Under the pieces are notes generated by a model. That model did not search any database, was not told the DNA's origin, and saw only the letters and a program-made list of their open reading frames with translations. From positions 72 through 64,071 of the forward strand of contig JAHWJI010000002.1 in NCBI GenBank assembly GCA_019348495.1: a stretch of 64,000 bases of DNA. The letters are read 5' to 3'. The DNA comes from Actinomycetota bacterium (GTDB taxonomy: Bacteria > Actinomycetota > Acidimicrobiia > Acidimicrobiales > CADCSY01). Positions 20,635-45,745 of this stretch are shown here, piece after piece; the stretch's first letter is position 1, and each line of letters opens with the position of its first letter. The position numbers and the translations under genes are program-made.

Positions 20635-20722
20635 GCCCCATCCTCGCGCAGTCCCCCGCCGCTCGTGTCGCCTCGAAGCCGGGGAGGGCGAAGGTGGGGA
20701 CGGCGTGCCTAACGTGGGGGTC

Positions 20723-21571: not shown

Positions 21572-21612
21572 GAAAGCTGATTGGATTGGTCAACTATTGG
21601 TAGGCTGGGTGG

Positions 21613-24113: not shown

Positions 24114-24123
24114 ATCTCGCCCA

Positions 24124-24164
24124 CCTTCTGGCTCGCCTCGCTCGCCGGCCCGCCAGCCAGAAGG
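24124..24164 (+). terminator. GC-rich hairpin after cysH (10-bp arms CCTTCTGGCT / AGCCAGAAGG), no U-tract
   Basis: Inverted repeat read directly at 24124-24133 and 24155-24164, 11 nt after the cysH stop. The loop is long (21 nt), so terminator function is uncertain. Confidence 0.25.
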
Positions 24165-24228
24165 GGCGCCTTGGGTGCCCTCGTGGCCGGCGGCCGGGCC
24201 TCGGCGCAGCTGAAGGGACGGAGGCCTA

Positions 24229-24915
24229 GTGGCCTCGTTCGGCTACCCCGTTTGCCTGGATCTCGGTGGCCGGCGCTGTGTCGTCATCGGCGGGGGCACC
24301 GTTGCCGAGCAGAAGGTTCGCGGGCTGCTCGACGGTGAGGGCGATGTGGTGGTGATCGCCGGTGAGGTGACGCCCGGGCTGGAGCGACTGGCGGGCGAGG
24401 GCGCGCTCGAGATCGTGCGCCGGGACTACGCCCGGGGTGACCTCGACGGGGCCTTTGTGGCCATCGCTGCGACTGACGACCCGGACGTCAACGCGGCGGT
24501 GCACGAGGAGGGGACGGCGGGGCGGGTGCTGGTCAACAGCGTGGACGACATCGCCCACTGCCACTTCTCGGTGCCGTCGACCGTGCGCCGGGGTGAGCTC
24601 ACCGTGGCGGTCTCCACGGGGGGCAAGGCGCCGGCGCTGTCCAAGAAGCTGCGCAAGATGTTGTCGGCCCGCCTCGGCCCCGAGTACGCCGACCTGGTGG
24701 AGGTGGTGGGCGAGGTCCGCACCACAGCCCGGCCCGAGCGGGCGCGGGTCGACTTCGAGACCTGGGCGACTCGTTGGGAGCTGGGTCTGGACGACGACGT
24801 GATGGCCATGGTCGCCGACGGCCGGCTCGACGAGGCCCGGAGCCGGCTGCTGGCCGTCCTGGCCGGTGACGTGGGGCCACGCCCCCTGGCGGACGGGTCC
24901 CCGGTTGGCTCGTGA
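24229..24915 (+). CDS. Precorrin-2 dehydrogenase / sirohydrochlorin ferrochelatase (CysG N-terminal / Met8 / SirC-type)
   Basis: CLDLGGRRCVVIGGGTVAEQKVRGLLDGEGDVVVIA (Rossmann fold) ... VSTGGKAPALSKKLR motif typical of the sirohaem synthase N-domain. Confidence 0.75.
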   Translation: MASFGYPVCLDLGGRRCVVIGGGTVAEQKVRGLLDGEGDVVVIAGEVTPGLERLAGEGALEIVRRDYARGDLDGAFVAIAATDDPDVNAAVHEEGTAGRVLVNSVDDIAHCHFSVPSTVRRGELTVAVSTGGKAPALSKKLRKMLSARLGPEYADLVEVVGEVRTTARPERARVDFETWATRWELGLDDDVMAMVADGRLDEARSRLLAVLAGDVGPRPLADGSPVGS

Positions 24916-24953
24916 GCTTGTGAAGCGCACCAGGCCATCGGTAGGTTGGTGAC

Positions 24954-25715
24954 GTGAAGGCCCTTCGACCCCGGCGCCGCATCCCGGAGGCCACGGTCGC
25001 CCGCCTGCCCGTGTACCTCCGCAGCCTCCTCGAGCTCGCCGGCGTGGACACGGTGACCATATCCTCGGAGCGCCTGGCCGAGATGGCCGGGGTCAACGCG
25101 GCCAAGGTCCGCAAGGACCTGTCCTACCTGGGCTCCTACGGCACTCGGGGCGTGGGCTACGACGTCGAGTTCCTGTTGTTCCAGATGAGCCGGGAGCTGG
25201 GCCTGACCCAGGCCTGGCCCGTGGTCATCGTCGGGGTGGGGAACCTGGGCCACGCCCTGGCCAACTACGGCGGCTTCGGCGAGCGGGGGTTCCCCGTCGG
25301 CGCCCTGGTCGACGCCGATCCGGCCAAGGTGGGAGAGCGGGTGGGTGAGCTGGTCATTCGCAGCGTCGAAGAGCTGCCCACCGTCGTCGCCGAGCTGGGG
25401 CCGTCGATCGGCGTGGTGGCCACGCCGGCGTCGGTGGCCCAGGAGGTGGTCGACCAACTGGTGGCCGCCGGCGTGCGCTCCATCCTCAACTTCGCGCCCA
25501 CGATGGTGACGGTGCCGGCCGACGTCTCGCTGCGCAAGGTCGATCTCGCCGTCGAGCTGCAGATCCTCAGCTTCTACCAGCAGCGGCGCAGCCCGCTCGT
25601 GGCGCCCGCCGTCCCCGCCCCGATCGACGCCGAGGAGGTCGCTGCCGGCGGGAACGAGCGCTCGCCGGGCATGGTGGCCGCCCCGCTCTCCGTGGCCACC
25701 GACGCCCCCTCCTGA
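24954..25715 (+). CDS. rex: Redox-sensing transcriptional repressor Rex
   Basis: RIPEATVARLPVYLRSL...SSERLAEMAGVNAAKVRKDLSYLGSYGTRGVGYDV (winged helix) and the Rossmann motif VVIVGVGNLGHAL. Confidence 0.9.
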   Translation: MKALRPRRRIPEATVARLPVYLRSLLELAGVDTVTISSERLAEMAGVNAAKVRKDLSYLGSYGTRGVGYDVEFLLFQMSRELGLTQAWPVVIVGVGNLGHALANYGGFGERGFPVGALVDADPAKVGERVGELVIRSVEELPTVVAELGPSIGVVATPASVAQEVVDQLVAAGVRSILNFAPTMVTVPADVSLRKVDLAVELQILSFYQQRRSPLVAPAVPAPIDAEEVAAGGNERSPGMVAAPLSVATDAPS

Positions 25716-25821
25716 TGGGTGAGCGCCCGGCGGTGAGTTGGCACAGGTCCCTCAGGTCGGAGAGGCTGCAACCGGTCGAGCGAGCAGAGCCAGGACGAGA
25801 GCGAAGGGAGGCTCGGGCCAG

Positions 25822-27081
25822 GTGTCGGTGATCGTCGTCGGGCTCAACCACCGCAGCGTGTCCCTCGAGGTGCTCGAGCGCATGACCGTGCCCCAGCCCC
25901 GTATGGCCAAGGCGCTCCACGATCTCATGGGGCGCGACGACCTCTCCGAAGCCGTGGTGCTGTCCACCTGCAACCGCACCGAGATCTACGCCCACGCCGA
26001 ACGCTTCCACGGTGCGGTGGGCGACGTACGCGACTTCCTCTCCGAGCTGGGCGCCCTGGCCCCCGAGGAGTTCGCCGATCACCTCTACCAGTTCCACGAC
26101 GCCGGAGCCGTGGCCCACCTGTTCACCGTGGCCGCCGGGGTCGACTCGGCGGTGCTGGGCGAGACCGAGATCCTCCGACAGGTCAAGGGCGCGTGGGACC
26201 TGGCCTCGGCCGAGGGCGCCACCGGACCGGTCCTCAACATGCTCTTCCGCCACGCCCTGGAGGTGGGCAAGCGGGTGCGCACCGAGACGGCCATCTCCCG
26301 GCACATCACCTCCCTCTCCCAGGCCGCCGTCGCCCTGGCCGCCGAGCGCCTCGGCTCCCTGGCCGGGCGTCGGGTCCTCGTCCTCGGCGCGGGCGAGACG
26401 GGCGAGCGGATGGTGGCCTCGTTGGCCCAGGCCGGCGTGGCCGAGGTGCTGGTGGCCAACCGGACCTGGGAGCGGGCCGAAGCCCTGGCCAACCGGGTGG
26501 GGGGCCGGGCCCTCGGACTGGTCCACGTCCCCGCCGCCCTGGTCGAGGTCGATCTGTTGTTGACGTCCACCGGCGCCTCCTCGGTCCTGGTCGACCACGG
26601 CGACCTGGAAGGTGTGGTGGCCGCCCGGGGCGGGCGTCCCCTGCTCATCGTGGATGTCGCCGTGCCCCGCGACGTCGACCCCGGCGCCGCCGACCTGGCC
26701 GGGGTGACGCTGCTCGACATGGACGACCTGCGGGCCTTCGCCGAGCGGGGCCTGGCTGAGCGCCGGCGGGAGGTGACCCGGGCCCGGGACCTCATCGACG
26801 ACGAGGTGTGCCGGTACCGCGAGGCCATCACCACCCGCCAGGTGGCGCCCCTGGTCACTGCCCTGCGCCGGCGGGTCGACGAGGTGCGGGCCGCCGAGGT
26901 CGACCGGCTCAGCCGCGGCCTCGACCCGACCCAGCGCGAGGCCGTCGACGCCATCGCCCGCAACGTGGTGGCCAAGCTGTTGCACGAGCCCACCGTCCGC
27001 CTCAAGGAATCGGCCGGCTCGCCCCGGGGAGAGCGCCTGTCCGAGGCGCTGCGGGACCTGTTCGGCCTCACTGACGACTAG
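25822..27081 (+). CDS. hemA: Glutamyl-tRNA reductase
   Basis: GTG at 25822 preceded by GAAGGGAGG. VSVIVVGLNHRSVSLEVLERM...VLSTCNRTEIY...VLVLGAGETGE. Confidence 0.9.
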   Translation: MSVIVVGLNHRSVSLEVLERMTVPQPRMAKALHDLMGRDDLSEAVVLSTCNRTEIYAHAERFHGAVGDVRDFLSELGALAPEEFADHLYQFHDAGAVAHLFTVAAGVDSAVLGETEILRQVKGAWDLASAEGATGPVLNMLFRHALEVGKRVRTETAISRHITSLSQAAVALAAERLGSLAGRRVLVLGAGETGERMVASLAQAGVAEVLVANRTWERAEALANRVGGRALGLVHVPAALVEVDLLLTSTGASSVLVDHGDLEGVVAARGGRPLLIVDVAVPRDVDPGAADLAGVTLLDMDDLRAFAERGLAERRREVTRARDLIDDEVCRYREAITTRQVAPLVTALRRRVDEVRAAEVDRLSRGLDPTQREAVDAIARNVVAKLLHEPTVRLKESAGSPRGERLSEALRDLFGLTDD

Positions 27082-27090
27082 GCGTTCGGC

Positions 27091-28065
27091 GTGGAGCCGA
27101 CGGGACCGCCGGCGCCGCTGGTGCGCATCGCCACCCGGGGCAGCGCGTTGGCCCGCTGGCAGGCCGAGCACGTCGCGTCGCGGCTGCGAGCAGCCCGACC
27201 GGGTCTGGTCGTCGAGTTGGTGGTGGTCGACACCCTGGGGGACCAGGCGATCGACCGGCCCATCTGGGAGCTCGGTGGGCAGGGGATCTTCGTCAAGGAG
27301 GTGCAGGCTGCGGTGCTCGACGGGCGGGCCGACCTGGCCGTGCACTCGGCCAAGGACCTGCCCTCGGACCCGACGCTGGGCCTGCCCGGGCTGGCGATAG
27401 CCGCCGTGCCGCAACGGGGTGACGCCCGTGACGTGCTGGTCGGATGCCGACTGGCCGACATCCCGCCCGGCGGCGTCGTCGCCACCGGCTCGACCCGGCG
27501 CCGAGCCCAGCTCGCCGACCTGCGCCCCGACCTGACCTTCACCGGGTTGCGGGGCAACATCGACACCAGGCTGCGTCGAGTGGGCGACGGCGTGGTGGGC
27601 GCGGTGGTGATGGCCGCTGCCGCCCTCCAGCGCCTGGGCCGGGAGGGGTTCGTCGTCGAGGTGTTGGAGCCCTCGACGATGGTGCCCCAGGTGGGCCAGG
27701 GGGCGCTGGCGGTGGAGTGTCGTCAAGACGACGAGCCCACGCTCGCCCTGCTGGCCGGCATCGAGCACCCACCGTCGCGACGGGCGGTGGACGCCGAGCG
27801 GGCGTTCCTGGCCTGTCTGGGTGGAGGCTGCGAGCTGCCGGTGGGCGCCCACGCCACCGTGGACGAGGCTGGCCGCATGCGGTTGCGTGCCGTGCTGGCC
27901 ACCCTCGACGGTCGGGTGGTGTTGCGTGACGAGGTGGTGGCCCACCCAGGCGCCGATCCCGGTGCGCTCGGTCGAGGCCTGGGCCGGCGCCTGCTCCAGG
28001 CCGGTGGCGGCCGATCGCTCCTCTCCGACATGGGCGTGCGCACCCTCGAACGGTCCCTGCGGTAG
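27091..28065 (+). CDS. hemC: Hydroxymethylbilane synthase (porphobilinogen deaminase)
   Basis: RIATRGSALARWQAEHV...VVDTLGDQ...GIFVKEVQ...HSAKDLP...GGCELPVGAHA. Confidence 0.9.
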   Translation: MEPTGPPAPLVRIATRGSALARWQAEHVASRLRAARPGLVVELVVVDTLGDQAIDRPIWELGGQGIFVKEVQAAVLDGRADLAVHSAKDLPSDPTLGLPGLAIAAVPQRGDARDVLVGCRLADIPPGGVVATGSTRRRAQLADLRPDLTFTGLRGNIDTRLRRVGDGVVGAVVMAAAALQRLGREGFVVEVLEPSTMVPQVGQGALAVECRQDDEPTLALLAGIEHPPSRRAVDAERAFLACLGGGCELPVGAHATVDEAGRMRLRAVLATLDGRVVLRDEVVAHPGADPGALGRGLGRRLLQAGGGRSLLSDMGVRTLERSLR

Positions 28066-28072
28066 AGCCGCC

Positions 28073-29536
28073 GTGACGGTGTACCTCGTCGGTGCCGGGC
28101 CGGGTGACCCGGGGCTGTTGACCGTGCGGGCGGCCGAGGTGCTGGCCCGGGCCGAGGTGGTGGTCCACGATCGTCTCTCGGTGGCGTCCCTGCTCGACCT
28201 GGCCCCTCCCGGTGCCGAGCGCATCAGCGTGGGCAAGACCCCCCGGGGGCCCAGCACCCCTCAGGTCGACATCAACGCCTTGCTGGTGGCCAGGGGCGGC
28301 GCCGGCCAGGAGGTGGTCCGCCTCAAGGGCGGCGACCCGTTCGTCTTCGCCCGGGGTGGCGAGGAGGCGGCCGCCCTCCAGTCGGCGGGTGTCGCCTTCG
28401 AGATCGTGCCCGGGATCACCTCGGCCGTGGCCGTGCCCGCCTACGCCGGGGTGCCGCTCACCGCCCGGGGCCTCAACACCACCGTCACCGTGGTCACCGG
28501 CCACGAGGACAGCCTGAGCGGAGGGCGCACCGACTGGGAGGCGGTGGCCAGGTTGGGGGGCACCATCGTGGTGCTGATGGGTGTGGCCACCCGGGCGGTC
28601 ATCGCCGAGCGGCTCATGGCCGGCGGGCTGGCCCCGACCACGCCCGTGGCCGCCGTGCGCTGGGGCACCCGGCCCGAGCAGCACACCGTGCGCACCACCC
28701 TGGCCGGCCTCGGTCCCGCCCCGGTCGCCTCGCCCGCGGTGATCGTGGTGGGGGCGGTGGCCGGGCTGGACCTGGCCTGGTACGAACGGCTGGCGCTGTT
28801 CGGTCGCTCGGTGGTGGTCACCCGGCCGCCGGCGCAGGCCTCGGCGCTCTCCGGGCGCCTGGCCCGCCTCGGCGCACGGGTCGTCGAGCTGCCCGTCATC
28901 GAGATCCACGATCCCACCGACGGGGGCGCCGCCCTGGCCTCGGCCGCGGCGGCAGTGGCCGCCTACGACTGGGTGGTGTTCACGTCGGCCAACGCCGTCG
29001 AGCGCTTCCTGCACCTGCTGCGCGACGCCCGCGCCTTTGGCCCCGCCCGGGTGGCGGCCATCGGTCCGGGCACGGCCGCGGCCCTGGCCGAGGCCCGGGT
29101 GGTGTCCGATCTGGTGCCCGAGCGCTTCGTGGCCGAGTCGCTGCTCGACGCCTTCCCCCCCGCACCGCCCGCACGGGGGGGACGGGTGCTCCTGCCCCGG
29201 GCCGCGGTGGCGCGAGACGTGCTGCCCGACGGCTTGCGGGCGCGTGGCTGGGAGGTCGACGTGGTGGAGGCCTACCGCACCCGCACGGCCTGCCCTCCAC
29301 CGGCGCTGGTGGCGTCGGCCGCCGGCTGCGACGCGGTGACCTTCACCTCGTCGTCGAGCGTCACCGGGTTCCTGGAGGCGGTGGGACGGGAGGCGCTGCC
29401 CCCGGTGGTGGCCTGCATAGGGCCCGTCACCGCCGCCACTGCCCGCCGGCACCGGATCACCGTGGACGTCGAGGCCGACGTGCACACCCTCGACGGGCTG
29501 GTCGACGCCCTGGTGGCCGTGCTCGGGCGGCGGTGA
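28073..29536 (+). CDS. cobA/hemD: Bifunctional uroporphyrinogen-III C-methyltransferase / uroporphyrinogen-III synthase
   Basis: GTG at 28073. VYLVGAGPGDPGLLTVRAAEVL...VVRLKGGDPFVFARGGEE (SUMT), followed by a HemD half with DWVVFTSANAV and DAVTFTSSSSV. Confidence 0.85.
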   Translation: MTVYLVGAGPGDPGLLTVRAAEVLARAEVVVHDRLSVASLLDLAPPGAERISVGKTPRGPSTPQVDINALLVARGGAGQEVVRLKGGDPFVFARGGEEAAALQSAGVAFEIVPGITSAVAVPAYAGVPLTARGLNTTVTVVTGHEDSLSGGRTDWEAVARLGGTIVVLMGVATRAVIAERLMAGGLAPTTPVAAVRWGTRPEQHTVRTTLAGLGPAPVASPAVIVVGAVAGLDLAWYERLALFGRSVVVTRPPAQASALSGRLARLGARVVELPVIEIHDPTDGGAALASAAAAVAAYDWVVFTSANAVERFLHLLRDARAFGPARVAAIGPGTAAALAEARVVSDLVPERFVAESLLDAFPPAPPARGGRVLLPRAAVARDVLPDGLRARGWEVDVVEAYRTRTACPPPALVASAAGCDAVTFTSSSSVTGFLEAVGREALPPVVACIGPVTAATARRHRITVDVEADVHTLDGLVDALVAVLGRR

Positions 29537-29639
29537 AGGCGAGCCCCCGCCGGTGGTGACGACGAGAGGCACTGACCCGGGCTCCGAGGGTCCGACACGG
29601 TGGTCACGACCTGGGACGGCGGGGCTCCGTAGGCTGGGC

Positions 29640-30620
29640 GTGGTGAGCTTTCCCGCCCGACGGATGCGGCGCCTGCGGCGGACCCCGGCGCTGCGCCGGC
29701 TGGTCGCCGAAGCCCGCCTGTCGGTCGACGACCTGGTGGCCCCGCTGTTCGTGGGCGAGGGCATCGACGAGCCCCGGCCCATCGCCTCGCTGCCCGGCAT
29801 GGTCCAACACAGCCGGGAGTCCCTGCGCAAGGAGGTGGCCGCCCTGGCCGACCTGGGGATCCCCGGAGTGATGCTCTTCGGCATCCCCACCACGAGGGAC
29901 GCCGAGGGCAGCCAGGCGTGGGCACCCGACGGCATCGTCCAGGTGGCGCTGGCCGAGCTGCGGGTCGAGGTGGGCGACGACGTGGTGCTCATGGCCGACC
30001 TGTGCCTCGACGAGTACACCGACCACGGCCACTGTGGCGTGCTCGCCCCCGACGGCAGCGTCGACAACGACCTCACCCTCGAGCGCTACGCCCAGGTGGC
30101 GCTGGCCCAGGCGGGGGCCGGCGCCGACGTGGTCGCTCCCAGCGGGATGATGGACGGCCAGGTGGCGGCCATCCGCTCGGCGCTCGAGCGTGGCGGTCAC
30201 CACCGGGTGGCCATCCTGGCCTACGCGGCCAAGTACGCCTCGGCCCTCTACGGCCCTTTCCGCGACGCCGTCGACGTCACCATCGCCGGCGGGGGGGACC
30301 GTCGGTCCTACCAGCAGGACCATCGCAACCGGCGAGAGGCCATGGCCGAGGTGGCGCTCGACGTGGCTGAAGGCGCCGACCTGGTCATGGTCAAGCCCGC
30401 CCTGGCCTGCCTCGACGTCATCGCCGACGTCCGCCGGGCGCTCGACGTCCCCGTCGCCGCCTATCACGTGTCGGGGGAGTACGCCATGGTCCACGCCGCC
30501 GCCGAGCGGGGCTGGATCGACGGGCCGGCCGTGGCCGTCGAGCAGCTCCAAGCGGTCAAGCGGGCCGGGGCCGACATCATCGTCACCTACTTCGCCCGCG
30601 AGGTGGCTGGGGCCCTGTGA
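29640..30620 (+). CDS. hemB: Porphobilinogen synthase (delta-aminolevulinate dehydratase)
   Basis: FPARRMRRLRRTPALRRLV...APSGMMDGQV...VKPALACLDVI...YHVSGEYAM. The start could be GTG 29640 or 29643. Confidence 0.9.
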   Translation: MVSFPARRMRRLRRTPALRRLVAEARLSVDDLVAPLFVGEGIDEPRPIASLPGMVQHSRESLRKEVAALADLGIPGVMLFGIPTTRDAEGSQAWAPDGIVQVALAELRVEVGDDVVLMADLCLDEYTDHGHCGVLAPDGSVDNDLTLERYAQVALAQAGAGADVVAPSGMMDGQVAAIRSALERGGHHRVAILAYAAKYASALYGPFRDAVDVTIAGGGDRRSYQQDHRNRREAMAEVALDVAEGADLVMVKPALACLDVIADVRRALDVPVAAYHVSGEYAMVHAAAERGWIDGPAVAVEQLQAVKRAGADIIVTYFAREVAGAL

Positions 30621-31957
30621 GCGCCGGCGACACCAACGACTCTCTGTTCGACCGGGCCTGTCGGGTGATGCCCGGCGGGGTGAGCTCGCCCGTGCGGGCC
30701 TTCGGGGCGGTGGGCGGCACCCCGTACTTCGTGGCCCGGGCCGAGGGCGCCCACGTGTGGGACGTGGAGGGTCGTCGCTACCTCGACTACGTGCAGAGCT
30801 ACGGGGCGTCGATCCTGGGCCACGCCCACCCCCGGGTGGTCGAGGCGGTGCGAGCGGCAGCAGGACGGGGGACCACCTACGGCGCCCCCACCGAGGGCGA
30901 GGTGCTGCTGGGCGAGGAGCTGGCCCTGCGGGTCGAGGGCCTGGAGATGGTGCGCCTGGTCTCGAGCGGGACCGAGGCGGCCATGTCGGCGGTGCGCCTG
31001 GCCCGGGGGGCCACCGGGCGGTCGAGGATCGTCAAGTTCGCCGGGTGCTACCACGGCCACAGCGATGGACTCCTGGCCGCCGGTGGCAGCGGGGTGGCCG
31101 ACGCCGGTCTGGCCGACTCGGCGGGAGTGACCGCCGGCGCCGTGGCTGACACGGTGGTGGCCCCCTACAACCGGGTACCGGAGGTGGGCGACGACGTGGC
31201 CGCCGTGGTGGTGGAGCCGGTGGCGGCCAACATGGGCCTGGTCGCCCCCGCCGAGGGGTTCCTCGCCGGGCTTCGCCAGGCGTGTGACCGCGCCGGTGCC
31301 CTGTTGTGCTTCGACGAGGTGATCACCGGTTTCCGGCTCGGTCCCGGTGGTGCCAGCCAGCGCTTCGGTGTCCGCCCCGACCTGTGGTGCTTCGGCAAGG
31401 TCATCGGCGGCGGGCTGCCGCTGGGGGCCTTCGGCGGCCGGCGCGACGTCATGGAGCACCTCGCCCCGCTGGGGCCGGTGTACCAGGCCGGCACCCTGTC
31501 GGGGAACCCGGTGGCCACCGCCGCCGGGCTCGCGGTACTGGCTGAGCTGGATGCCGGCGCCTACACGATGCTCGATGGCCGGGCCGCGGAGCTGGCGGCG
31601 GCGCTGTCGGAGGTCATCACCGGCGCCGGGCTGGCCGTGCAGGTACCCCGGGTCGGTCCCCTCCTGGGGTTGTTCTTCTCGTCGAGCCCGGTGTGCGACC
31701 ACGACGAGGCCAGGGCCGCGGTGGCCAACGGTCGCTACCGGCGCTTCTTTCGGGCCATGCTCGACCGCGGCGTCGCCTTGGCCCCCGGGCCCTACGAAGC
31801 CATCTTCCCCAGCCTTGCCCACGGCCGTGACGACATCGAGCGCACGGCCGACGCCGCCGCCGCCGCCGCCCGGGAGGTCCTGGGCCACGAGGTCGAAGGG
31901 CGGGCGGGGGCGAGCGGGGGAACGGGAGTCGACCGGCCCGGTAGGGTCCGAGCGTGA
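30617..31957 (+). CDS. hemL: Glutamate-1-semialdehyde 2,1-aminomutase
   Basis: GTGA overlap with hemB. MPGGVSSPVRAF...FDEVITGFR...FGKVIGGGLPLGAFGGR. Confidence 0.9.
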   Translation: MSAGDTNDSLFDRACRVMPGGVSSPVRAFGAVGGTPYFVARAEGAHVWDVEGRRYLDYVQSYGASILGHAHPRVVEAVRAAAGRGTTYGAPTEGEVLLGEELALRVEGLEMVRLVSSGTEAAMSAVRLARGATGRSRIVKFAGCYHGHSDGLLAAGGSGVADAGLADSAGVTAGAVADTVVAPYNRVPEVGDDVAAVVVEPVAANMGLVAPAEGFLAGLRQACDRAGALLCFDEVITGFRLGPGGASQRFGVRPDLWCFGKVIGGGLPLGAFGGRRDVMEHLAPLGPVYQAGTLSGNPVATAAGLAVLAELDAGAYTMLDGRAAELAAALSEVITGAGLAVQVPRVGPLLGLFFSSSPVCDHDEARAAVANGRYRRFFRAMLDRGVALAPGPYEAIFPSLAHGRDDIERTADAAAAAAREVLGHEVEGRAGASGGTGVDRPGRVRA

Positions 31958-38669: not shown

Positions 38670-39518
38670 TCACGATCCTGCGGCGCCCTCCCCCTTGGCA
38701 CCGCCACCACCTTCGGCCTCGTTGCCCACGTCGCCGCCCTCGGCCTCGGCCTCGCCCGCCGGCGCCCCCCCGCTCCCCTCGCCGCCCTCGTCCGGGGCCG
38801 TGGGCGCGCCCTCACCGCCCGCACCGCCCTCGCCGGCGGCCAGCGCCGATTCCGTCTCGCCGCCGAGGATCTCCCGCTCGTAGCGGACCACGGCCAGGAT
38901 CTCCTCTTCGGTCAGGCTGTCGCCGAAGGCGGGCATGGCCCCACCGCTGGTCTCCGACGAGATGTGCTGGCCCCCCGGTCGCTCGGGGTTGCCGTAGGGA
39001 GTGCCGGCGGCGGGCGAGCCGTTGACCACCCAGGCGATGTGCTCGGCCGGATCCGGGAACGTCAGCAGCACCTCGCCGCCACTCAGCGGGCGACCGGTGC
39101 CGCCGCCGCCGTCGTTGCCGTGGCAGCTGGCGCAGGACTGGTTGTAGATGCCCTGGCCCTCCAGGAGCACCGGGTCGGTGATGCCCTTCTCGGGCACCAC
39201 CAGCGCCCCGGCGTAGACCACGGCCCAGATCGGCAGCATGGCCAGCACCGGAAGGGCCCAGACGGGGACCTTGGGTCGGGCCATGGCCGCGGTCACGTAG
39301 GGAGGGGGAGGAGGTGGAGGTGGGGGTGGGGCGGGTGCGACGGGCGCCGCCGCCGGTGGTGTGGGCGCAGGGGTGGGCGTGGCCGAGGTCGAGGTGACCG
39401 AGGTGCCGGGGGTGCTCGAGGCCTCGGGCGCCGGCGTGGCGTCGCTGTCCCCCCCCAGCCCGAGCGCTGCTCGTCGCTCCCGGGAGCGCTGCAGCAGGTG
39501 CTCAGGAACCTCGGTCAC
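38670..39518 (-). CDS. Membrane-anchored mono-haem c-type cytochrome with cytoplasmic N-terminal PEHLLQR motif, poly-Pro linker and acidic Gly-rich tail
   Basis: GTG at 39518 preceded by GGAGTGGAGGTGGA. VTEVPEHLLQRSRERR; a run of 10 Pro; TM helix WALPVLAMLPIWAVVYAGALVV; haem motif CASCHG; distal Met region GGAMPAF. Confidence 0.75.
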   Translation of the reverse strand: MTEVPEHLLQRSRERRAALGLGGDSDATPAPEASSTPGTSVTSTSATPTPAPTPPAAAPVAPAPPPPPPPPPPYVTAAMARPKVPVWALPVLAMLPIWAVVYAGALVVPEKGITDPVLLEGQGIYNQSCASCHGNDGGGGTGRPLSGGEVLLTFPDPAEHIAWVVNGSPAAGTPYGNPERPGGQHISSETSGGAMPAFGDSLTEEEILAVVRYEREILGGETESALAAGEGGAGGEGAPTAPDEGGEGSGGAPAGEAEAEGGDVGNEAEGGGGAKGEGAAGS

Positions 39519-39537
39519 TTTCCACCTCCACTCCTTC

Positions 39538-39607
39538 GCTCGGGCGCTCGGCGCTCGGGCGCTCGGGTCTGCTCGGGTCTGCTCGGGTCTGCTCGGGTCC
39601 TCGGGCC
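39538..39607. repeat. Tandem array of 7-8 copies of GCTCGGG (spacings 8, 7, 8, 10, 10, 10, 9 nt), immediately 5' of the cytochrome c start
   Basis: Read directly: gctcgggc gctcggc gctcgggc gctcgggtct gctcgggtct gctcgggtct gctcgggtcc tcgggcc. Confidence 0.9.
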
Positions 39608-39808: not shown

Positions 39809-40249
39809 ATGTTTGCGTTCGTGCTGTCACTTGTCGTCACCCTCGGCTCGATAGGCGCCGCCCTCAAGTACATGAAGCGCCGGCCTGCCGACGCCCGGTT
39901 GACCTGGGGCGAGGCCGCCGCCGCCGCCGTCTTCGTCTACTTCGTGTTGTTCATGGCCTACGGCGTGGTGCCCCACCAGTGGCTCACCTGGGCCGACAAC
40001 GAGCTGAGCTGGCGTCCCGACCGGTTCCTGACGGGGCCCGGCGGGATCTTCGCCGACGCCCTTCCCTTCGAGCTCACCTACCTCGTGTTGCGTGACATCG
40101 TGGTGAGTGGCATCTACGGCGCCTTCCTCGCGGCCCAGGTGGTGCTGTGGAAGAAGTGGCAGGACCGGGGCAAGCCCGAGCCCGGCGACCGCAAGGAGCT
40201 GGAGACGTCCCCGTTCGGCCGTCCCCTCGTCAAGCTGGAAAGGGCCTGA
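39809..40249 (+). CDS. Small 3-TM membrane protein, first gene of the b6-type cluster
   Basis: ATG with a strong RBS. Helices FAFVLSLVVTLGSIGAAL, AAAAVFVYFVLFMAYGVV, VVSGIYGAFLAAQVVLW. No family recognised. Confidence 0.6.
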   Translation: MFAFVLSLVVTLGSIGAALKYMKRRPADARLTWGEAAAAAVFVYFVLFMAYGVVPHQWLTWADNELSWRPDRFLTGPGGIFADALPFELTYLVLRDIVVSGIYGAFLAAQVVLWKKWQDRGKPEPGDRKELETSPFGRPLVKLERA

Positions 40250-40252
40250 TCC

Positions 40253-40666
40253 ATGCCCAAGACCGACGCCAACCCGCCCATGCCGACCTTCTCCGGCGAC
40301 TACGTGCTCCAGGAGATCGCCCCCGAGGCGCTGTCGAAGTCGGTCAAGCCCAAGCAGTTCCTCCACATCGACCAGTCCGAGTGCATCATGTGCGAGGGCT
40401 GTGTCGACATCTGTCCGTGGAAGTGCATCCACATGCTCTCCACCGAGTCGGTGGCCGAGGCCACCAACACCATCGAGCCCGGTGTCGACCCCGACGACCA
40501 CGTGATCTTCGTGGTCGACGAGGACATCTGCACCCGCTGCGCCCTGTGCGTCGACCGCTGTCCCACCGGCGTGATCGTCCTCGGCAAGGCCGGCGTGTCC
40601 GCACGCGACGGCGACCAGCACCAGCGCGACAACAACTACGGCTACGCCTACGGGATGAGGTTCTAG
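40253..40666 (+). CDS. 2x[4Fe-4S] ferredoxin-type protein
   Basis: Two CxxCxxCxxxCP motifs: [12 protein letters not shown] and [12 protein letters not shown]. No obvious signal peptide or TM segment. 3 nt after the upstream stop and 4 nt before the cytochrome b6 start. Confidence 0.8.
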
Positions 40667-40670
40667 GCCG

Positions 40671-41453
40671 ATGGCCAAGGCGGTCCAGGGGGAGCGCGAG
40701 GGGTTCTCCGAGAAGCTGAGCAAGCGGATGGAGGCGGTGCAGGCGTCCCAGGCGTGGAACTCGATCTTCCGCCCCGGTTCGATCTTCCGCAAGGGCTACA
40801 CCGACAGCCCCCGGAACCGGTCCTACGTCATCATGAACTCGGTGCTGTACCACCTGCACCCGGTCAAGGTGAAGCGCCACGCGGTGAAGGTGAGCTACAC
40901 GCTGTGCCTGGGCGGGCTGTCGTTCTTCTTGTTCATCCTGCTGACCGTCACCGGGATCTTCCTCATGTTCTTCTACCGGCCGACGGCGGCGCAGGCCTGG
41001 ACCGACATCTACTCCCTGCACACCTCGGTCACCTTCGGCCTCCTGGTTCGCAACATGCACCGATGGGGTGCCCACCTCATGGTGCTCAGCGTGTTCCTGC
41101 ACATGGCCCGGGTCTTCTACCACGGGGCCTACAAGCCGCCGCGGGAGTTCAACTGGGTCATCGGGGTCATCCTGCTCACCCTCACCCTGCTGCTGTCGTT
41201 CACCGGCTACCTGCTGCCGTGGGACCAGCTGGCGCTGTGGGCGGTGACCGTCGGCACCAACATGATGGGCTACACCCCGGTGTTCGGCGATCAGGTGCGC
41301 TTCGTGTTGCTGGGCGGGGTGGAGATCGGCACCGACACCCTGCTGCGCTGGTACGTGCTCCACGTCTTGATGCTCCCGTTCGTCCTGGTGCTGTTCCTGG
41401 CCGTGCACTTCTGGCGGGTGCGCAAGGACGGCGGCATCTCCGGGCCGCTGTAG
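40671..41453 (+). CDS. Cytochrome b6-type protein (N-terminal four-helix half of cytochrome b)
   Basis: Haem-ligand spacing [15 protein letters not shown] and [32 protein letters not shown]. PetB-like C-terminus [14 protein letters not shown] motif at the haem-ci position. Confidence 0.85.
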
Positions 41454-41487
41454 GGTCCGCACGAGGGTAAGGAAGGAGAGGACCGAC

Positions 41488-42282
41488 GTGACCGAGATCC
41501 CCGAGCACCTGCTCAAGCGGGCCCAGGAGGCCAAGGCCAAGGCCGCGGCCAAGGCCGGCCCCGATGCGGCCGCCGGCGCCGATGGTGGCGGTGACTCGGG
41601 CAAGATCCCGGCCCACCTGTTGGCCCGTTCCCAGGCGGCCCGCTCGGCCGCCGCCGGCGGGGGGGGCGAGGCCACCGGCAGCGAGGCCGCCGGGGGCGGC
41701 GTGGCCACCGCCGAGCGCCCCGGAGGCGCGGTGGCCACGATGCCTGCCGCCGGGGCGCAGGCTCCGCCGCTGGCCACCGGGCCCGAGGGCCACACCCAGC
41801 GACTCCTCACCGTGGTCAAGGCCGGGTCCATCCAAGACGTCAAGGCCAGGCCCGTGGACAAGGTCCACACCTGGCCTCATCTTCTGGTGGTCGAGTTCGT
41901 GGCTGCGCTGGCCTGCACCGCCTTCCTGCTGGTGTTCTCGGCGTTCGTGAACGCCCCGCTGCTGAGCTTGGCCAACTTCAACCTGACCCCCAACCCGTCC
42001 AAGGCGCCCTGGTACTTCCTCGGTCTCCAGGAGCTGCTGACGATGTTCCACCCCATGGTCGCGGGGGTGACGATCCCGGGCATGGGCATCTTCGCCCTGA
42101 TCCTCGCTCCCTACTCCGACAAGAACCCGTCCCCCCGTCCCGAGGACCGCAAGTTCGCCATCATGCTCTTCACCACGTTCCTCATGTTCTGGGCCGTGCT
42201 GGTGATCATCGGGTCGTTCTTCCGGGGCCCGGGCTTCAACTTCACCTTCCCGTGGAACGACGGTGTGTTCTTTGACCTCTGA
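41488..42282 (+). CDS. Cytochrome b C-terminal-half / subunit IV (PetD-like) protein with a ~125-aa cytoplasmic N-terminal extension
   Basis: GTG with RBS AAGGAAGGAGAGG. TWPHLLVVEFVAALACTAF and the Qo-region KAPWYFLGLQELL. The N-terminus carries two PEHLL-type motifs. Confidence 0.8.
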   Translation: MTEIPEHLLKRAQEAKAKAAAKAGPDAAAGADGGGDSGKIPAHLLARSQAARSAAAGGGGEATGSEAAGGGVATAERPGGAVATMPAAGAQAPPLATGPEGHTQRLLTVVKAGSIQDVKARPVDKVHTWPHLLVVEFVAALACTAFLLVFSAFVNAPLLSLANFNLTPNPSKAPWYFLGLQELLTMFHPMVAGVTIPGMGIFALILAPYSDKNPSPRPEDRKFAIMLFTTFLMFWAVLVIIGSFFRGPGFNFTFPWNDGVFFDL

Positions 42283-42342
42283 GTCGTTGCTCTCTGCACC
42301 GGTGCGCTCGGGGAACCGGGCGATGATCGAGAGGAGTCGCTG

Positions 42343-43185
42343 ATGGAGGGGACGACGGTGCTCACCATCGCCATCCCGGTGCTGGTCGCCCTGGCCGCGC
42401 TGGTGCTGTTCACCACCGCCCGACGGCGTGACAGCGACCGGGCCCTCTCCGACGATGCCAGCCCCGACGAGGCAGCGAGCCCACGGTCCTCCCGGGGCCG
42501 TGAGGTCGAGCGCCAGGCCGTGCTGGCCCGCACGTCCTCGGGCACGGAGCTGGCCCGGGCCGACAGCCCGCCGCCGGCGCCCTATGTCCCACCCGACGAG
42601 GAGGCCATCGGCGTCACCCGGCGCCAGTTCCTCAACCGCAGCGCGGTGGGGATGATGGTGTTCTCCCTGTCGGGCTTCGGCGCCGCCTGCATCGCCTTTC
42701 TTTGGCCCCGCCTCGGCGGCGGGTTCGGCTCCACCATCAACGTGGGCACCCTCGACGACGTCCTGGCCAGCATCAGCGAGAACCGTGAGCCCTTCTACGT
42801 CCCCGAAGGGCGCTTCTACATCAACCCCTACCCGCCGGACGCCGTGGCCAAGTCGGCGAGCGTCTACGGACCGAGCGTGATGGCCGGCCTGGAGGCGGGG
42901 GTCATCGCCCTCTACCAGAAGTGCCCCCACCTCGGGTGCCGGGTGCCGTGGTGCCTCACCTCCCAGTGGTTCGAGTGCCCGTGCCACGGTTCGCAGTACA
43001 ACCGGGTCGGCCAGAAGAAGAGCGGTCCGGCTCCCCGGGGCATGGACATGTTCCCGGTCACCATCACCGGTGGCCAGATCAGCGTCGACACCGGCGAAGT
43101 GATCGACGGCGTCCCCATCGGCACCAACACCACCGGCCAGGAAGCCGAGGGCCCGCACTGCGTGGGCGGGTCGAGCGAGCACTAG
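42343..43185 (+). CDS. Rieske [2Fe-2S] subunit
   Basis: CPHLGCRV ... CPCHGSQY. Internal Tat-like TRRQFLNRSAV followed by a TM helix. An extra N-terminal TM helix. Confidence 0.85.
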   Translation: MEGTTVLTIAIPVLVALAALVLFTTARRRDSDRALSDDASPDEAASPRSSRGREVERQAVLARTSSGTELARADSPPPAPYVPPDEEAIGVTRRQFLNRSAVGMMVFSLSGFGAACIAFLWPRLGGGFGSTINVGTLDDVLASISENREPFYVPEGRFYINPYPPDAVAKSASVYGPSVMAGLEAGVIALYQKCPHLGCRVPWCLTSQWFECPCHGSQYNRVGQKKSGPAPRGMDMFPVTITGGQISVDTGEVIDGVPIGTNTTGQEAEGPHCVGGSSEH

Positions 43186-43189
43186 GACA

Positions 43190-44359
43190 GTGACCGTCTC
43201 GTCCGGGGTCCTGGCCGCCTCGCTGCAACAGTCCATAGGCATCGTCGTCGCCCTCGTCGTGGTGGTCGGCTGGGGCCTGTACCTGGCGGCCAACGTGCGC
43301 CGGGCCAAGCCCGAGGTCGGCGCCGAGCTGGAGCTGGCGCCCAACCGCAAGCCCTACCTCGACGACGAGGACCTGGAAGGTCCACGCCTGGAACGGGCGC
43401 TCACGTGGGGTCTGATCGCCCTGACCATCTGCGGGGTGGGGCTACCCCTGTACTGGCTGGCCGAGCCCGGCCGACAGGCCGGGGCGGTGGAGGATTTCGA
43501 CGAGCGCCTCAGTGGGACCTACTCCATCCACGGCCAGCCCATCGGGGGGGGTGCGCTGTTCTCGGCCACCGCCGACGGCGGGTTCAACTGTGCCGGCTGC
43601 CACGGCGGCATGGAGGCCCTGGGCGCCGAGGTGCCCCACACCCTCACCGACCCGGTGACCGGCGATCTCCGCCAGGTCCAGTGGAAGGCCCCCTCCCTCA
43701 ACGACGTGACGCTGCGCATGACCGACGAGCAGATCAGGAAGGTCCTGATCTACGGCCGGCCCTTCTCGCCCATGCCCGCCTGGGGCCTCGAGGGCGGTGG
43801 CCCGCTCAACGAGCAGCAGATCGACAACCTCATCCGCTACCTCCACCAGATCGCCATCACCCCCGAGGAGGCTCGCCAACAGAACACCGAGGCGGCCGAG
43901 GAGGAGTTGGCCCGCCTCCAGGCCGAGGGGGGCGACCAGGAAGCCAGCATGGGTGCAGCCCTGTTCAACGTGAACTGCGCCCGCTGCCACACCCAGGGGT
44001 GGTCCTACGACGAGCCCGAGCTCCCGGGAGGCGGCTTCTTCGGGCCCAGCATCTACAACGCCACCGAGCAGTTCCCGGCCATCGAGGACCACCTGGAGTT
44101 CGTGACCGACGGCGCCGAGATCGGTGACGAGTACGGCGTAGGTGGCTTCAGCGACGGCAACATGCCCTACTTCGGCCAGGTGCTCACCCCCGAGCAGATC
44201 CGGGCCATCGTCGACTACGAGCGGGGGCTGGCCCAGCAGGTCAACCGGGACGTGGCCCTCGACCAGCCGCCGCCCCCGCCCCCGCCGCCGCCCCCGCCGG
44301 AGCCGCCGCCCGCACCACCGCCCGAGCCGCCGCCATCGCCACCGCCGGCGGGTCCGTGA
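43190..44359 (+). CDS. Membrane-anchored di-haem cytochrome c with a poly-proline C-terminal tail
   Basis: Two N-terminal TM helices. Haem motifs CAGCHGG and CARCHTQG. The C-terminus has a run of 11 Pro followed by EPPPAPPPEPPPSPPPAGP. Confidence 0.8.
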   Translation: MTVSSGVLAASLQQSIGIVVALVVVVGWGLYLAANVRRAKPEVGAELELAPNRKPYLDDEDLEGPRLERALTWGLIALTICGVGLPLYWLAEPGRQAGAVEDFDERLSGTYSIHGQPIGGGALFSATADGGFNCAGCHGGMEALGAEVPHTLTDPVTGDLRQVQWKAPSLNDVTLRMTDEQIRKVLIYGRPFSPMPAWGLEGGGPLNEQQIDNLIRYLHQIAITPEEARQQNTEAAEEELARLQAEGGDQEASMGAALFNVNCARCHTQGWSYDEPELPGGGFFGPSIYNATEQFPAIEDHLEFVTDGAEIGDEYGVGGFSDGNMPYFGQVLTPEQIRAIVDYERGLAQQVNRDVALDQPPPPPPPPPPPEPPPAPPPEPPPSPPPAGP

Positions 44360-45165
44360 TGGTCTCGAGCCTGGTCACCCTGGCCCTGACCGTGACGTGG
44401 GACCCCACCATCCGGGGCATCCTGGTGGTGCTCGTCTCGTTCCTCGTGCTGTGCGGCTCGGGGTACCTGGTGCTGAGCACCAACGTCGGGTCCCGCCTGG
44501 GGTTCCTGGTCGCCGCCGCCGCCTTCTGGGGCTGGATGACCATCATGGGCGCAGCCTGGTGGGTGTACGGCATCGGCTTGGAGGGGGCACCGCCTGCATG
44601 GGTGGTCGTGGAGGTGCTCACCGCCACACAGGCGGGTGACACCTCCAACGCCCGGTTGCCCGAGGCGCGCGACCTGTCCGGCTGGCGCAAGCTGCCCGAG
44701 GGCGACGTGATCCTGGGCGAGGCCCAGACCGCGGCGGACGAGGCCCTGACCGGCGAGGAGAGTCCCGTCGCCCGCTTCGAAGCCACCGGGGACTACGTCA
44801 CCGTCGGTGCCTACGCCATCGGAGGAAGGGACCTCAGCAACCCTTTGTCGCGCATCCCCGGGCCGTCGCCACCCCAGCATGCCCTCGTCCAGGTCCAGCC
44901 CGCGGTGGAGGTCATCACCCTCCAGGAGGGCCAGACCTGTCCCGCCGGGGCCACCTGCATCGAGTTCGGCGAGACCCCGCCCAAGGCCGAGCCGGTCCGG
45001 GGGGCACCGGTGATCTCGGTCATCATGGTCCGCGACCTGGGCTCGGCCCGGCTGCCCCCGGCCATCGTCACCATCTCCTCGGCCGTCATCTTCGCCATCG
45101 TCGCCAACACCTTGCACCGGCGGGACAAGCTGGTCGCCGAGCACCGCGAGCAGGCTTCGGTCTGA
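44356..45165 (+). CDS. 4-TM membrane protein of unknown function, translationally coupled to the di-haem cytochrome c
   Basis: GTGA overlap. Helices ILVVLVSFLVLCGSGYLVL, LGFLVAAAAFWGWMTIMGAAWWVY, and a C-terminal IVTISSAVIFAIVANTL. Confidence 0.6.
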   Translation: MMVSSLVTLALTVTWDPTIRGILVVLVSFLVLCGSGYLVLSTNVGSRLGFLVAAAAFWGWMTIMGAAWWVYGIGLEGAPPAWVVVEVLTATQAGDTSNARLPEARDLSGWRKLPEGDVILGEAQTAADEALTGEESPVARFEATGDYVTVGAYAIGGRDLSNPLSRIPGPSPPQHALVQVQPAVEVITLQEGQTCPAGATCIEFGETPPKAEPVRGAPVISVIMVRDLGSARLPPAIVTISSAVIFAIVANTLHRRDKLVAEHREQASV

Positions 45166-45223: not shown

Positions 45224-45745
45224 GTGGACCAGTACCTGCCGCTCGTCGTGATGTTCGTGCTGGCGGTCGGCTTCGTCGTCCTCAGCCTGCTCACGTCCAA
45301 GCTGCTTGCCCCCGATCGCCCCACCCAGGCCAAGCAGGCGCCGTATGAGTGCGGCATCGTCCCCACCCGAGAGCCGGCCCGGCGATTCCCGGTGCGCTTC
45401 TACCTGGTGGCGATGATCTTCATCGTGTTCGACATCGAGATCATCTTCTTGTTCCCGTGGGCGGTGGTGCACCGGGAGCTGGGTGCCTTCGGCCTGTGGG
45501 CCATCGTGGCCTTCATCGTCCCGTTCTTCTTGTCCTTCCTGTGGGAGATCGCCGAGGGCGGCCTCGACTGGGGCCCGCTGGCCCGCTCCCGCTCGTTGGG
45601 TGTGCTCACCGGTCCGGAGCGGGCCACTGCGCCCTCCGTCCGGGTGGTGGGCCTCGAAGGCCGCCTGGCGGCCCGGCCCGAGGGGCGTGCGACCGTGGCG
45701 GTGGGAGCGTCGTCGGGGGGAGACGCCGGGGGGGTCGGGCACTGA
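45224..45745 (+). CDS. nuoA: NADH-quinone oxidoreductase subunit A, with a ~50-aa C-terminal extension
   Basis: PYECGIVP...[28 protein letters not shown]. Confidence 0.85.

Follow-up and report, generated by a model that had tools for sequence, protein, structure and literature searches.

A conserved seven-gene cluster of Actinomycetota that joins a split cytochrome b6-type core, a dicluster ferredoxin and two unassigned membrane proteins in a candidate complex III

A 64,000-nucleotide stretch of DNA from an Actinomycetota bacterium of the order Acidimicrobiales (GenBank assembly GCA_019348495.1, contig JAHWJI010000002.1, positions 72 to 64,071 of the forward strand; hereafter the window) carries seven co-directional genes, here called g1 to g7, at positions 39809 to 45165. 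They encode a membrane protein, a 2x[4Fe-4S] ferredoxin, a cytochrome b6, a subunit IV, a Rieske protein, a di-haem cytochrome c, and a second membrane protein. The same seven genes stand together in the same order across several lineages of Actinomycetota. The reading favoured here, held with about even confidence, is that they encode a single membrane complex that serves Acidimicrobiia, Nitriliruptoria, and related Actinomycetota as their menaquinol:cytochrome c oxidoreductase (complex III), and in which the ferredoxin would be an iron–sulfur (FeS) subunit at the membrane's cytoplasmic face (the n-side).

The seven-gene cluster and its conservation

All seven genes lie on the forward strand. 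The g1 gene (39809..40249) encodes a protein of 146 amino acids (aa) with three transmembrane segments in hydropathy analysis, and g2 (40253..40666) encodes a 137-aa ferredoxin matched by Pfam Fer4 families. The g3 product (40671..41453; 260 aa, four transmembrane segments) was assigned to cytochrome b6 by Pfam and NCBIfam, and the g4 product (41488..42282; 264 aa, three transmembrane segments) to subunit IV by Pfam Cytochrom_B_C and an ExtQ-like NCBIfam match. The Rieske [2Fe-2S] protein of g5 (42343..43185; 280 aa) and the membrane-anchored di-haem cytochrome c of g6 (43190..44359; 389 aa) were both recognised by Pfam, NCBIfam, and hydropathy. The last gene, g7 (44356..45165), encodes a 269-aa membrane protein with an ectodomain, which was modelled with AlphaFold and belongs to no family.

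The gaps between these genes are, in order, 3, 4, 34, 60, 4, and −4 nucleotides (nt). The spacings of 3 to 4 nt and the 4-nt overlaps suggest translational coupling of the cluster genes, and in every lineage checked the start of g7 overlaps the stop of the cytochrome c gene. No terminator-like site exceeding chance expectation was found in the cluster region. The GC content at third codon positions (GC3) is 0.92–0.98 in each of the seven open reading frames (ORFs), compared to 0.39–0.54 at second positions (GC2), in a window of approximately 70% GC. Such a high GC3 with a far lower GC2 indicates genuine coding sequence in a genome of 70% GC.

An earlier note on this DNA had described seven co-directional genes with spacings from −4 to +60 nt, and its coordinates proved exact. 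Hidden Markov model (HMM) scans against Pfam and NCBIfam agreed with the types that it had given to the ferredoxin, b6, subunit IV, Rieske, and di-haem cytochrome c genes. It had also counted three transmembrane segments in g1 and four in g7. The first count held, and the second is only approximate, as AlphaFold predicted three long transmembrane helices and a short N-terminal helix in g7.

Conservation of the gene order was assessed in 50 loci long enough for the whole seven-gene set, by tblastn and then inspection of positional ORFs. These loci came from Acidimicrobiia, Nitriliruptoria, and unclassified Actinomycetota. The seven genes were found in the same order by tblastn in 39 of the loci, and an ORF with g1 or g7 hallmarks stood at the expected place in the remaining 11, giving 50 of 50. 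Seven orthologues ordered alike in so many genomes are far beyond chance. The earlier note had suggested a distinct module, and this was borne out: the ferredoxin and both membrane ORFs are syntenic with the b6 and Rieske genes in every eligible locus. A scan with the ferredoxin alignment, using one genome per GTDB species, confirmed at least 593 loci among the 600 stretches listed; the best 80 of the listed loci were from Nitriliruptoria (Nitriliruptoraceae, Euzebyaceae, and Egibacteraceae) and unclassified Actinomycetota. Homologues of g1, g2, and g7, where named, came from metagenome-assembled genomes (MAGs) of Acidimicrobiia, Acidimicrobiales, or Actinomycetota, and the MAGs GCA_030446965.1, GCA_030447835.1, and GCA_030446845.1 are near-identical to the window.

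The surroundings of the cluster are more variable. In three Acidimicrobiia contigs (g7 identity 51–72%), the seven genes in order are followed on the 3′ side by the nuo operon and preceded on the 5′ side by genes for a divergent mono-haem cytochrome c and a MenJ-like reductase. A closed 3.4-Mb genome has the same seven genes and then nuoA and nuoB, without the upstream cytochrome c/MenJ-like pair. Distant full-length relatives of the ferredoxin (39–50% identity), retrieved in an exhaustive HMMER search, lie on contigs with the same gene order and a last gene for a membrane protein of about 270–340 aa; the neighbours of the cluster there are a cbb3-type oxidase and genes for cytochrome c maturation instead of nuo. 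Among 42 long loci outside Acidimicrobiia, the neighbours were ccdA/dsbD (37 loci), resB (29), ccsA (25), rex (24), hemL (17), and hemB (13). Since the flanks vary while the seven genes stay together, the cluster is one old, vertically inherited unit.

In the window, the end of g7 is followed 58 nt later by nuoA (45224..45745, + strand; Pfam, NCBIfam), with which a complete nuo (complex I) operon begins. The earlier note had pointed to this proximity, which is correct for the window but is not a trait of the module. The adjacency is restricted to Acidimicrobiia, so the linkage to complex I is lineage-specific and nuo lies outside the module.

Several other features of the neighbourhood were observed. 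The rex, hemA, hemC, hemB, and hemL genes of the window lie approximately 8–15 kb upstream of the cluster, within a stretch (20576–31957) that also holds hemD and a gene for a sirohaem-type nitrite/sulfite reductase. In loci of other Actinomycetota (L011–L087), the cluster directly adjoins ccdA/resB/ccsA, rex, hemL, and hemB, in what looks like a conserved neighbourhood of haem and cytochrome biogenesis. A cbb3-type oxidase pair (COX1 and FixO) lies a few kilobases from the cluster in 4 of the 42 long loci (L005, 1761–3787, − strand; L006, 56–1953, − strand; L011; and L012), and this oxidase is a candidate for the terminal acceptor of the complex. Locus L006 uses System I (Ccm) for cytochrome c maturation; other loci have ResB/CcsA.

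The split cytochrome b core and its clade

The g3 product matched Pfam Cytochrome_B with E = 1.4e-45 and has a PetB-like C-terminus. Its alignment with Chlamydomonas and cyanobacterial cytochrome b6 spans the whole b6 domain (E = 3e-47), and PetB is the top solved match. All four histidine ligands of the b haems (bL and bH) are found in g3, as pairs in MHRW...LHMAR and LHVL...VHFW in the alignment to 1q90_B. In the same alignment, the cysteine of LCLGG falls on Cys35 of Chlamydomonas b6, the site of haem cn/ci. CLGG and the C-terminal RKDGGISGP are each kept in 77 of the 77 b6 orthologues extracted. Judged from the conserved residues, haem cn would be bound covalently at the Qi site, with a glutamate as its suggested ligand.

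Subunit IV (g4) was aligned by profile to PetD 1q90_D and to Aquifex cytochrome b 6kls_B. It contains the Qo motif KAPWYF, and APWYF is present in 60 of the 60 subunit IV orthologues extracted; the glutamate of its WPHLxxxE motif is kept in 59 of them. With separate genes for a b6 of four transmembrane segments and a subunit IV of three, the cluster has the split b6-type design.

Both proteins are extended at the N-terminus. The extension of b6 has 53 residues and is specific to the family, with the motif W.SIFRPGS..RKGY in 68 of 77 orthologues. That of subunit IV is long and of low complexity, with invariant columns and two PEHLL-type motifs. Homology to the topology of b6f places both extensions on the n-side. 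The match to the Geobacter ExtP model begins at b6 residue 54 and that to the ExtQ model at subunit IV residue 128. As the extensions have no counterpart in these models and the Geobacter cluster has no ferredoxin, the extensions co-occur with the ferredoxin.

The motif TE[IV]PEHLL.[RK][SA] has just three occurrences in the 64-kb window, at 41497 (+), 41605 (+), and 39509 (−). Two of these copies are in the extension of subunit IV, and the third falls on what is likely the true start of a mono-haem cytochrome c encoded divergently beside the cluster. The likely true N-terminus of this cytochrome, MTEVPEHLLQRS, thus has a motif in common with subunit IV. The motif is kept in Acidimicrobiia loci (L001, L002, and L004) and is not found in Nitriliruptoria or other loci. 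Its presence in both proteins suggests that they may bind the same cytoplasmic partner.

Kao & Hunte (2014, PMC4122944) defined an APWY clade with a split cytochrome b (a b6 of four transmembrane segments and a subunit IV of three), a CxGG motif, and an APWY Qo motif; this clade is subfamily G of Dibrova et al. (PMC5600118) and groups split cytochromes b of delta-proteobacteria, Chloroflexi, Nitrospirae, and Planctomycetes. The best curated NCBIfam model for g3 was Geobacter ExtP, with 303.7 bits (cutoff 290), compared to 212 bits with the generic b6 model and 118 bits with QcrB_actin (cutoff 500). On its motifs and HMM scores, the g3/g4 pair probably belongs to the APWY clade, although its CxGG motif is LCLGG and the usual form in the clade is said to be WCMGG. 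Up to 2014, the clade had no characterised member (PMC4122944).

The earlier note had confined the split design to cyanobacteria and chloroplasts, Firmicutes, and heliobacteria. This limit does not hold, as APWY-clade split cytochromes b have been reported in Actinobacteria, in Ilumatobacter and in Rubrobacteridae (PMC4122944). That study assigned the split cytochrome b of Ilumatobacter coccineum (Acidimicrobidae) to one of two clades, PEWY-cyt c or APWY. The split design had therefore been described in Actinobacteria before. The difference from the unsplit actinobacterial QcrB, which the same note had drawn, was upheld; an unsplit cytochrome b is characteristic of Actinobacteridae (PMC4122944).

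The Rieske protein and the cytochromes c

The Rieske protein (g5) is closest to PetC-type models and was aligned to PetC 7zxy_D. It has the boxes CPHLGC and CPCHGSQY, the second being the same as in PetC. Box 1 was found in 56 of 57 orthologues and box 2 (CPCHGS.Y) in 57 of 57. The Kuenenia Rieske proteins 9rk4 and 9rk3 are among its top solved matches. Hydropathy placed two transmembrane segments ahead of the soluble domain in both the Rieske protein and the cytochrome c; in g5, the N-terminal one is an extra segment, and a Tat-like (twin-arginine translocation) motif, RRQFLN, precedes the second one.

The g6 product is a class I cytochrome c with two N-terminal transmembrane segments, the haem-binding motifs CAGCH and CARCH, and a poly-proline C-terminal tail. 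A single CxxCH was found in 32 of the 56 cytochrome c orthologues extracted (loci L005–L087), compared to two in the window protein, so the number of haems in this cytochrome differs between lineages.

On the other side of the cluster, a divergent gene (38670..39516, − strand) encodes a membrane-anchored mono-haem cytochrome c with the motif CASCH. The gene stands next to the cluster in the Acidimicrobiia loci L001, L002, L004, and L088–L090, and its product is a candidate electron acceptor of the complex. Poly-proline occurs in both c-type cytochromes, in the C-terminal tail of g6 (PPPPPPPPPPPEPPPAPPPEPPPSPPP; 44266–44350) and in the linker of this upstream cytochrome.

The ferredoxin and the unassigned membrane proteins

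The g2 product is a dicluster Fer4 protein (Pfam) with two CxxCxxCxxxCP motifs. The first motif, C-I-x-C-x-x-C-x-D-x-C-P-W-x-C, is present in 84 of 84 orthologues and the second, C-T-R-C-x-x-C-V-x-R-C-P, in 82 of 84. Neither a Sec (general secretory) signal nor a Tat motif was found in its sequence, which indicates a cytoplasmic protein. Its homologues form 2102 clusters of 74–93% identity and fixed length; within Acidimicrobiia, the length is constant at 137 aa and the N- and C-terminal extensions are conserved.

Compared to locus L002, the window proteins have identities of 87% (b6), 80% (ferredoxin), 63% (Rieske), 58% (g1), 52% (cytochrome c), and 51% (g7). The ferredoxin is therefore the second most conserved product after b6 in Acidimicrobiia. 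Such high conservation fits a constrained subunit better than a loosely associated carrier. In the AlphaFold model of g2 alone, the dicluster core has a predicted local distance difference test (pLDDT) score of 70–83, and the conserved N-terminus, inter-cluster insert, and C-terminal tail score below 50. These conserved segments of low pLDDT may become ordered only on a partner. Foldseek and sequence searches with g2 returned only generic dicluster wire modules (FwdF polyferredoxin, NdhI/NuoI, and PscB), and its top NCBIfam match was NuoI, at 42 bits compared to a cutoff of 113.

Apparent fusions of g1 to the ferredoxin or of the ferredoxin to b6 in public protein sets (P0255, P0262, P0302, P0305, P0311, P0334, and others) were recognised as frameshift read-throughs of this high-GC operon. 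They were therefore dropped as evidence of physical association. Such read-through "fusions" of g1, ferredoxin, and b6 could mislead domain-fusion analyses.

The g1 protein has homologues in 1053 clusters. Its outside loop is conserved (PHQWLTWADNE in the window; P[HS]xW[LVM]x[WYF]A[DE] in general form), as is its cytoplasmic C-terminal tail (TSxFGRPLVK), which is encoded immediately before the ferredoxin gene. A role of g1 as a membrane anchor or partner for the ferredoxin is proposed. The only sequence matches of g1 in the PDB were spurious ones of 15 residues to ETV6 fusion constructs.

Homologues of g7 form 575 clusters. Its AlphaFold model (pLDDT 81.6) consists of two N-terminal transmembrane helices, an extracytoplasmic alpha/beta domain of about 160 residues, and a C-terminal transmembrane helix. 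The PDB gave no sequence match to g7, and Foldseek gave no significant fold (best E = 0.13, TM-score < 0.2). Neither g1 nor g7 matched a Pfam family at E ≤ 10 or an NCBIfam family. The possibility that g1 or g7 are CCB (System IV) maturation factors of haem cn was considered and rejected, as the same Pfam scan gave no match to CCB1, CCB2/4, or YGGT.

Comparison with known complexes

Compared to other complexes built on a cytochrome b, the cluster exhibits a distinct combination of features. First, the Geobacter ExtP/ExtQ/ExtO system has the same split of b6 and subunit IV, and its ExtP model scores above cutoff on g3. However, the Geobacter cluster lacks a ferredoxin and surrounds its core with multihaem cytochromes, a porin, and a rhodanese (PMC5877670). 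None of this Ext context (the multihaem cytochromes ExtH-N and ExtS, porin, rhodanese) is present in the window cluster, and the ExtQ model reached 48 bits compared to a cutoff of 150. A "selenite/tellurite reduction" (Ext) label for the cluster was therefore rejected, and the Ext name is not transferable.

Second, the anammox complexes of Kuenenia (Kuste4569–4574 and Kustd1480–1485) likewise have a b6-type core with haem cn and a high-potential Rieske protein of the Ser(/Tyr) type in a menaquinone organism. A cytoplasmic [4Fe-4S] subunit was predicted to be wired to haems bN/cN there, and midpoint potentials of +303 mV (Kuste4569) and +335 mV were measured for the Rieske proteins (PMC12954380). 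In anammox, this subunit is a large FAD/NAD(P) oxidoreductase containing four FeS clusters, whereas g2 has 137 aa and Fer4 domains only. On the outer side of the membrane (the p-side), the anammox partners are hexa- or octa-haem cytochromes and HAO-like proteins, in contrast to the mono- or di-haem cytochrome c and two unrelated membrane proteins found here.

Third, cytochrome b6f shares with g3 the four histidines, Cys35, and a C-terminal R-K-x-G-I-S-G-P-L that aligns with it. It differs in having cytochrome f, PetG/L/M/N, and a PEWY motif, compared to a class I di-haem cytochrome c, no small Pet genes in the cluster, and APWY. Furthermore, ferredoxin is a soluble partner of b6f and is encoded in the operon here, and the likely substrate here is menaquinone. 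That ferredoxin donates electrons to haem cn in cyclic electron flow through b6f is a long-standing hypothesis (PMC5600118).

Fourth, the actinobacterial QcrCAB complex of Mycobacterium and Corynebacterium (CIII2CIV2) comes from the same phylum; here too the cytochrome c is di-haem and membrane-anchored, the Rieske protein has extra transmembrane helices, and menaquinol is the presumed substrate. Its QcrB is unsplit, with 8–9 transmembrane segments, and lacks CxGG, and it has no ferredoxin; the QcrA and QcrC models scored far below their cutoffs on the window proteins. Finally, the PDWF-FeS clade (Magnetospirillum, Turneriella, and Alicycliphilus; PMC4122944) associates cytochrome b with a 4Fe-4S/ferredoxin module, but as fusions, in another clade, with a PDWF motif and no Rieske gene in the cluster.

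No PDB chain was found that resembles g1 or g7, and none in which a ferredoxin of this kind accompanies a bc complex. The searchable literature gave no description of a b6c core together with the ferredoxin, g1, and g7; the operon maps in Fig. S1 of Dibrova 2017 lie outside this search. Thus, no published structure or biochemistry of the composition reported in the earlier note was met in either source. Genomic data already link short cytochromes b to FeS or NAD(P) oxidoreductases, in anammox bacteria and others (PMC5600118, PMC12954380), so that a cytoplasmic FeS module is a variant and not a first. No description was found of a b6c core that is invariably combined, across Actinomycetota, with a small dicluster ferredoxin and with g1 and g7.

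Proposed mechanism and alternative explanations

Actinobacteria make menaquinones, and a MenJ-like menaquinone reductase recognised by NCBIfam is encoded adjacent to the cluster; menaquinone is therefore taken as the substrate. Menaquinol would be oxidised at a Qo site built from b6 and subunit IV (APWY). The first electron would go to the Rieske cluster and from there to g6, the membrane-anchored cytochrome c, which would hand it to another cytochrome c or to an oxidase. The second would pass from haem bL to bH and to haem cn at the Qi site, where menaquinone would be reduced. This Q-cycle core is supported by the intact cofactor sites and the established chemistry of b6f and bc1.

In the proposed complex, g2 would be a permanent peripheral subunit on the n-side, held by the C-terminal tail of g1 and the family-specific extensions at the N-termini of b6 and subunit IV. 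Through its two clusters, a short wire would connect the cytoplasm with the haem pair bH/cn. The preferred direction of electron flow is inward, from a soluble low-potential donor through the FeS clusters and haem cn to menaquinone, which would add a ferredoxin:quinone reductase function to complex III. Electron input to Qi is favoured because all of the Qi-side features are conserved. The g7 protein would serve as an accessory subunit on the p-side, with its translation coupled to that of the cytochrome c. There is precedent for such an association, as short cytochromes b of the same broad group co-occur with cytoplasmic FeS oxidoreductases (PMC5600118, PMC12954380). The genes present, their cofactor motifs, the strict synteny, and the degrees of conservation are shown by the data; how the proteins assemble, where the ferredoxin sits, and which path the electrons take are parts of the proposal, as is the ferredoxin coupling suggested in the earlier note. 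A wider claim is held tentatively, with somewhat less than even confidence. It states that the ferredoxin is a stoichiometric n-side subunit within tunnelling distance of cn/bH, through which complex III would trade electrons with the low-potential cytoplasmic pool, either as a ferredoxin:menaquinone reductase or as a bifurcating ferredoxin reductase driven from Qo.

Four observations weigh against the proposed complex or its inward direction. First, between classes the ferredoxin has only about 39% identity while b6 keeps 73%. Second, no catalytic or NAD(P)-binding partner gene was found to be conserved near the cluster in the loci examined. Third, in the HMMER alignment Phe40 of PetD stands one residue after the conserved subunit IV glutamate, which is why the role of this glutamate as a haem cn ligand is put forward here as a suggestion. 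Fourth, the invariant Ser and Tyr of the Rieske signature suggest a high-potential cluster, which in a menaquinone organism would favour the outward, bifurcating direction (PMC12954380).

The last point leads to an unlikely but serious alternative, in which the same seven-subunit complex uses its ferredoxin as a low-potential outlet. An electron from bL/bH would leave through the FeS wire to a cytoplasmic ferredoxin or, via a partner, to NAD(P)+, and oxidation at Qo would be pulled by the high-potential chain of Rieske protein, cytochrome c, and oxidase. A mechanism of this type, with a b chain of very low potential and an FeS exit to NAD(P)+, has been argued for the anammox Rieske/cyt b complexes (PMC12954380). 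The CPCHGS.Y box, with its hydrogen-bonding Ser and Tyr in all 57 orthologues, is of the same type as in PetC and Kuste4569 (+303 mV, PMC12954380), and Kuenenia Rieske proteins are among the nearest solved relatives of g5. By the argument of PMC12954380, menaquinone use and the adjacent MenJ-like reductase would also imply a bL of very low potential. However, CLGG, RKDGGISGP, and the glutamate of subunit IV are nearly invariant, and a working quinone-reduction site would compete with an uphill exit. Furthermore, the operon encodes no FAD or NAD(P) domain, and redox potentials read from sequence motifs are unreliable.

A second alternative, to which we give a similarly low probability, retains an ordinary Q-cycle core and makes g1, g2, and/or g7 factors for biogenesis, assembly, or regulation (haem cn attachment, FeS insertion, or redox sensing), co-transcribed for stoichiometric supply. 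Outside Acidimicrobiia, genes for cytochrome c maturation (ccdA in 37, resB in 29, and ccsA in 25 of the 42 long loci) and haem synthesis adjoin the cluster, as does rex. A haem cn motif is present and g1 and g7 have no CCB match, so some unrecognised maturation system must exist. Both proteins are also fast-evolving, with a median identity of 26–33% between classes. On the other hand, the ferredoxin is better conserved than the Rieske protein and the cytochrome c in Acidimicrobiia, and its presence goes together with the n-side extensions of b6 and subunit IV. Assembly factors, moreover, seldom lead an operon with 3–4 nt coupling to structural genes.

It is highly improbable that the ferredoxin, g1, or g7 belong to complex I, or that they are unrelated genes merely lying beside bc genes: g7 ends 3–58 nt before nuoA in the window and other Acidimicrobiia with no terminator seen, and NuoI is the top NCBIfam match of the ferredoxin, though far below cutoff, but in Nitriliruptoria and other Actinomycetota the cluster is intact with no nuo beside it, the nuo operon has a separate nuoI, and g7 overlaps the cytochrome c gene in all lineages checked. 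A functional tie of the cluster to complex I was thus largely refuted by synteny, given that the nuo adjacency is confined to Acidimicrobiia.

Significance

If the ferredoxin is a true subunit, a large and environmentally abundant part of Actinomycetota runs a complex III unlike the textbook QcrCAB. The scale is indicated by the at least 593 loci in GTDB species-representative genomes and by more than 2000 ferredoxin clusters at 90% identity in the protein database. The complex would then provide an aerobic system for probing the function of haem cn and for asking whether FeS proteins feed or drain the Qi-side haems, a question that also arises in b6f cyclic flow and in anammox. It would represent a natural, genetically fixed link from ferredoxin to haem cn, which has been hypothesised yet never shown for b6f cyclic electron flow, and it would back the descent of bc complexes from FeS dehydrogenases anchored by cytochrome b.

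The interest of the cluster lies in the prospect that this ferredoxin/haem cn question could become experimentally tractable in aerobic bacteria, including cultured genera. Euzebya, Nitriliruptor, and Egicoccus were among the scan matches, and Ilumatobacter is known from the literature. The g1 and g7 families, in turn, would be fixed partners of a central respiratory enzyme that are without a known fold or function.

Additional features of the window

Between the mono-haem cytochrome c gene and g1, a unit of about 10 nt, GCTCGGGTCT, is repeated in tandem in approximately 5–8 copies in the intergenic or leader stretch at 39537–39606. Downstream of the cluster, NuoA has a variable C-terminal extension: its called lengths range from 126 to 234 aa in L001, L002, L004, L091, and the window, and the Pfam domain covers residues 19–116 only. 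Elsewhere in the window, a gene at 3888–5411 (− strand) encodes a 507-aa fusion of a DAO-type FAD oxidoreductase with a C-terminal Rieske [2Fe-2S] domain.

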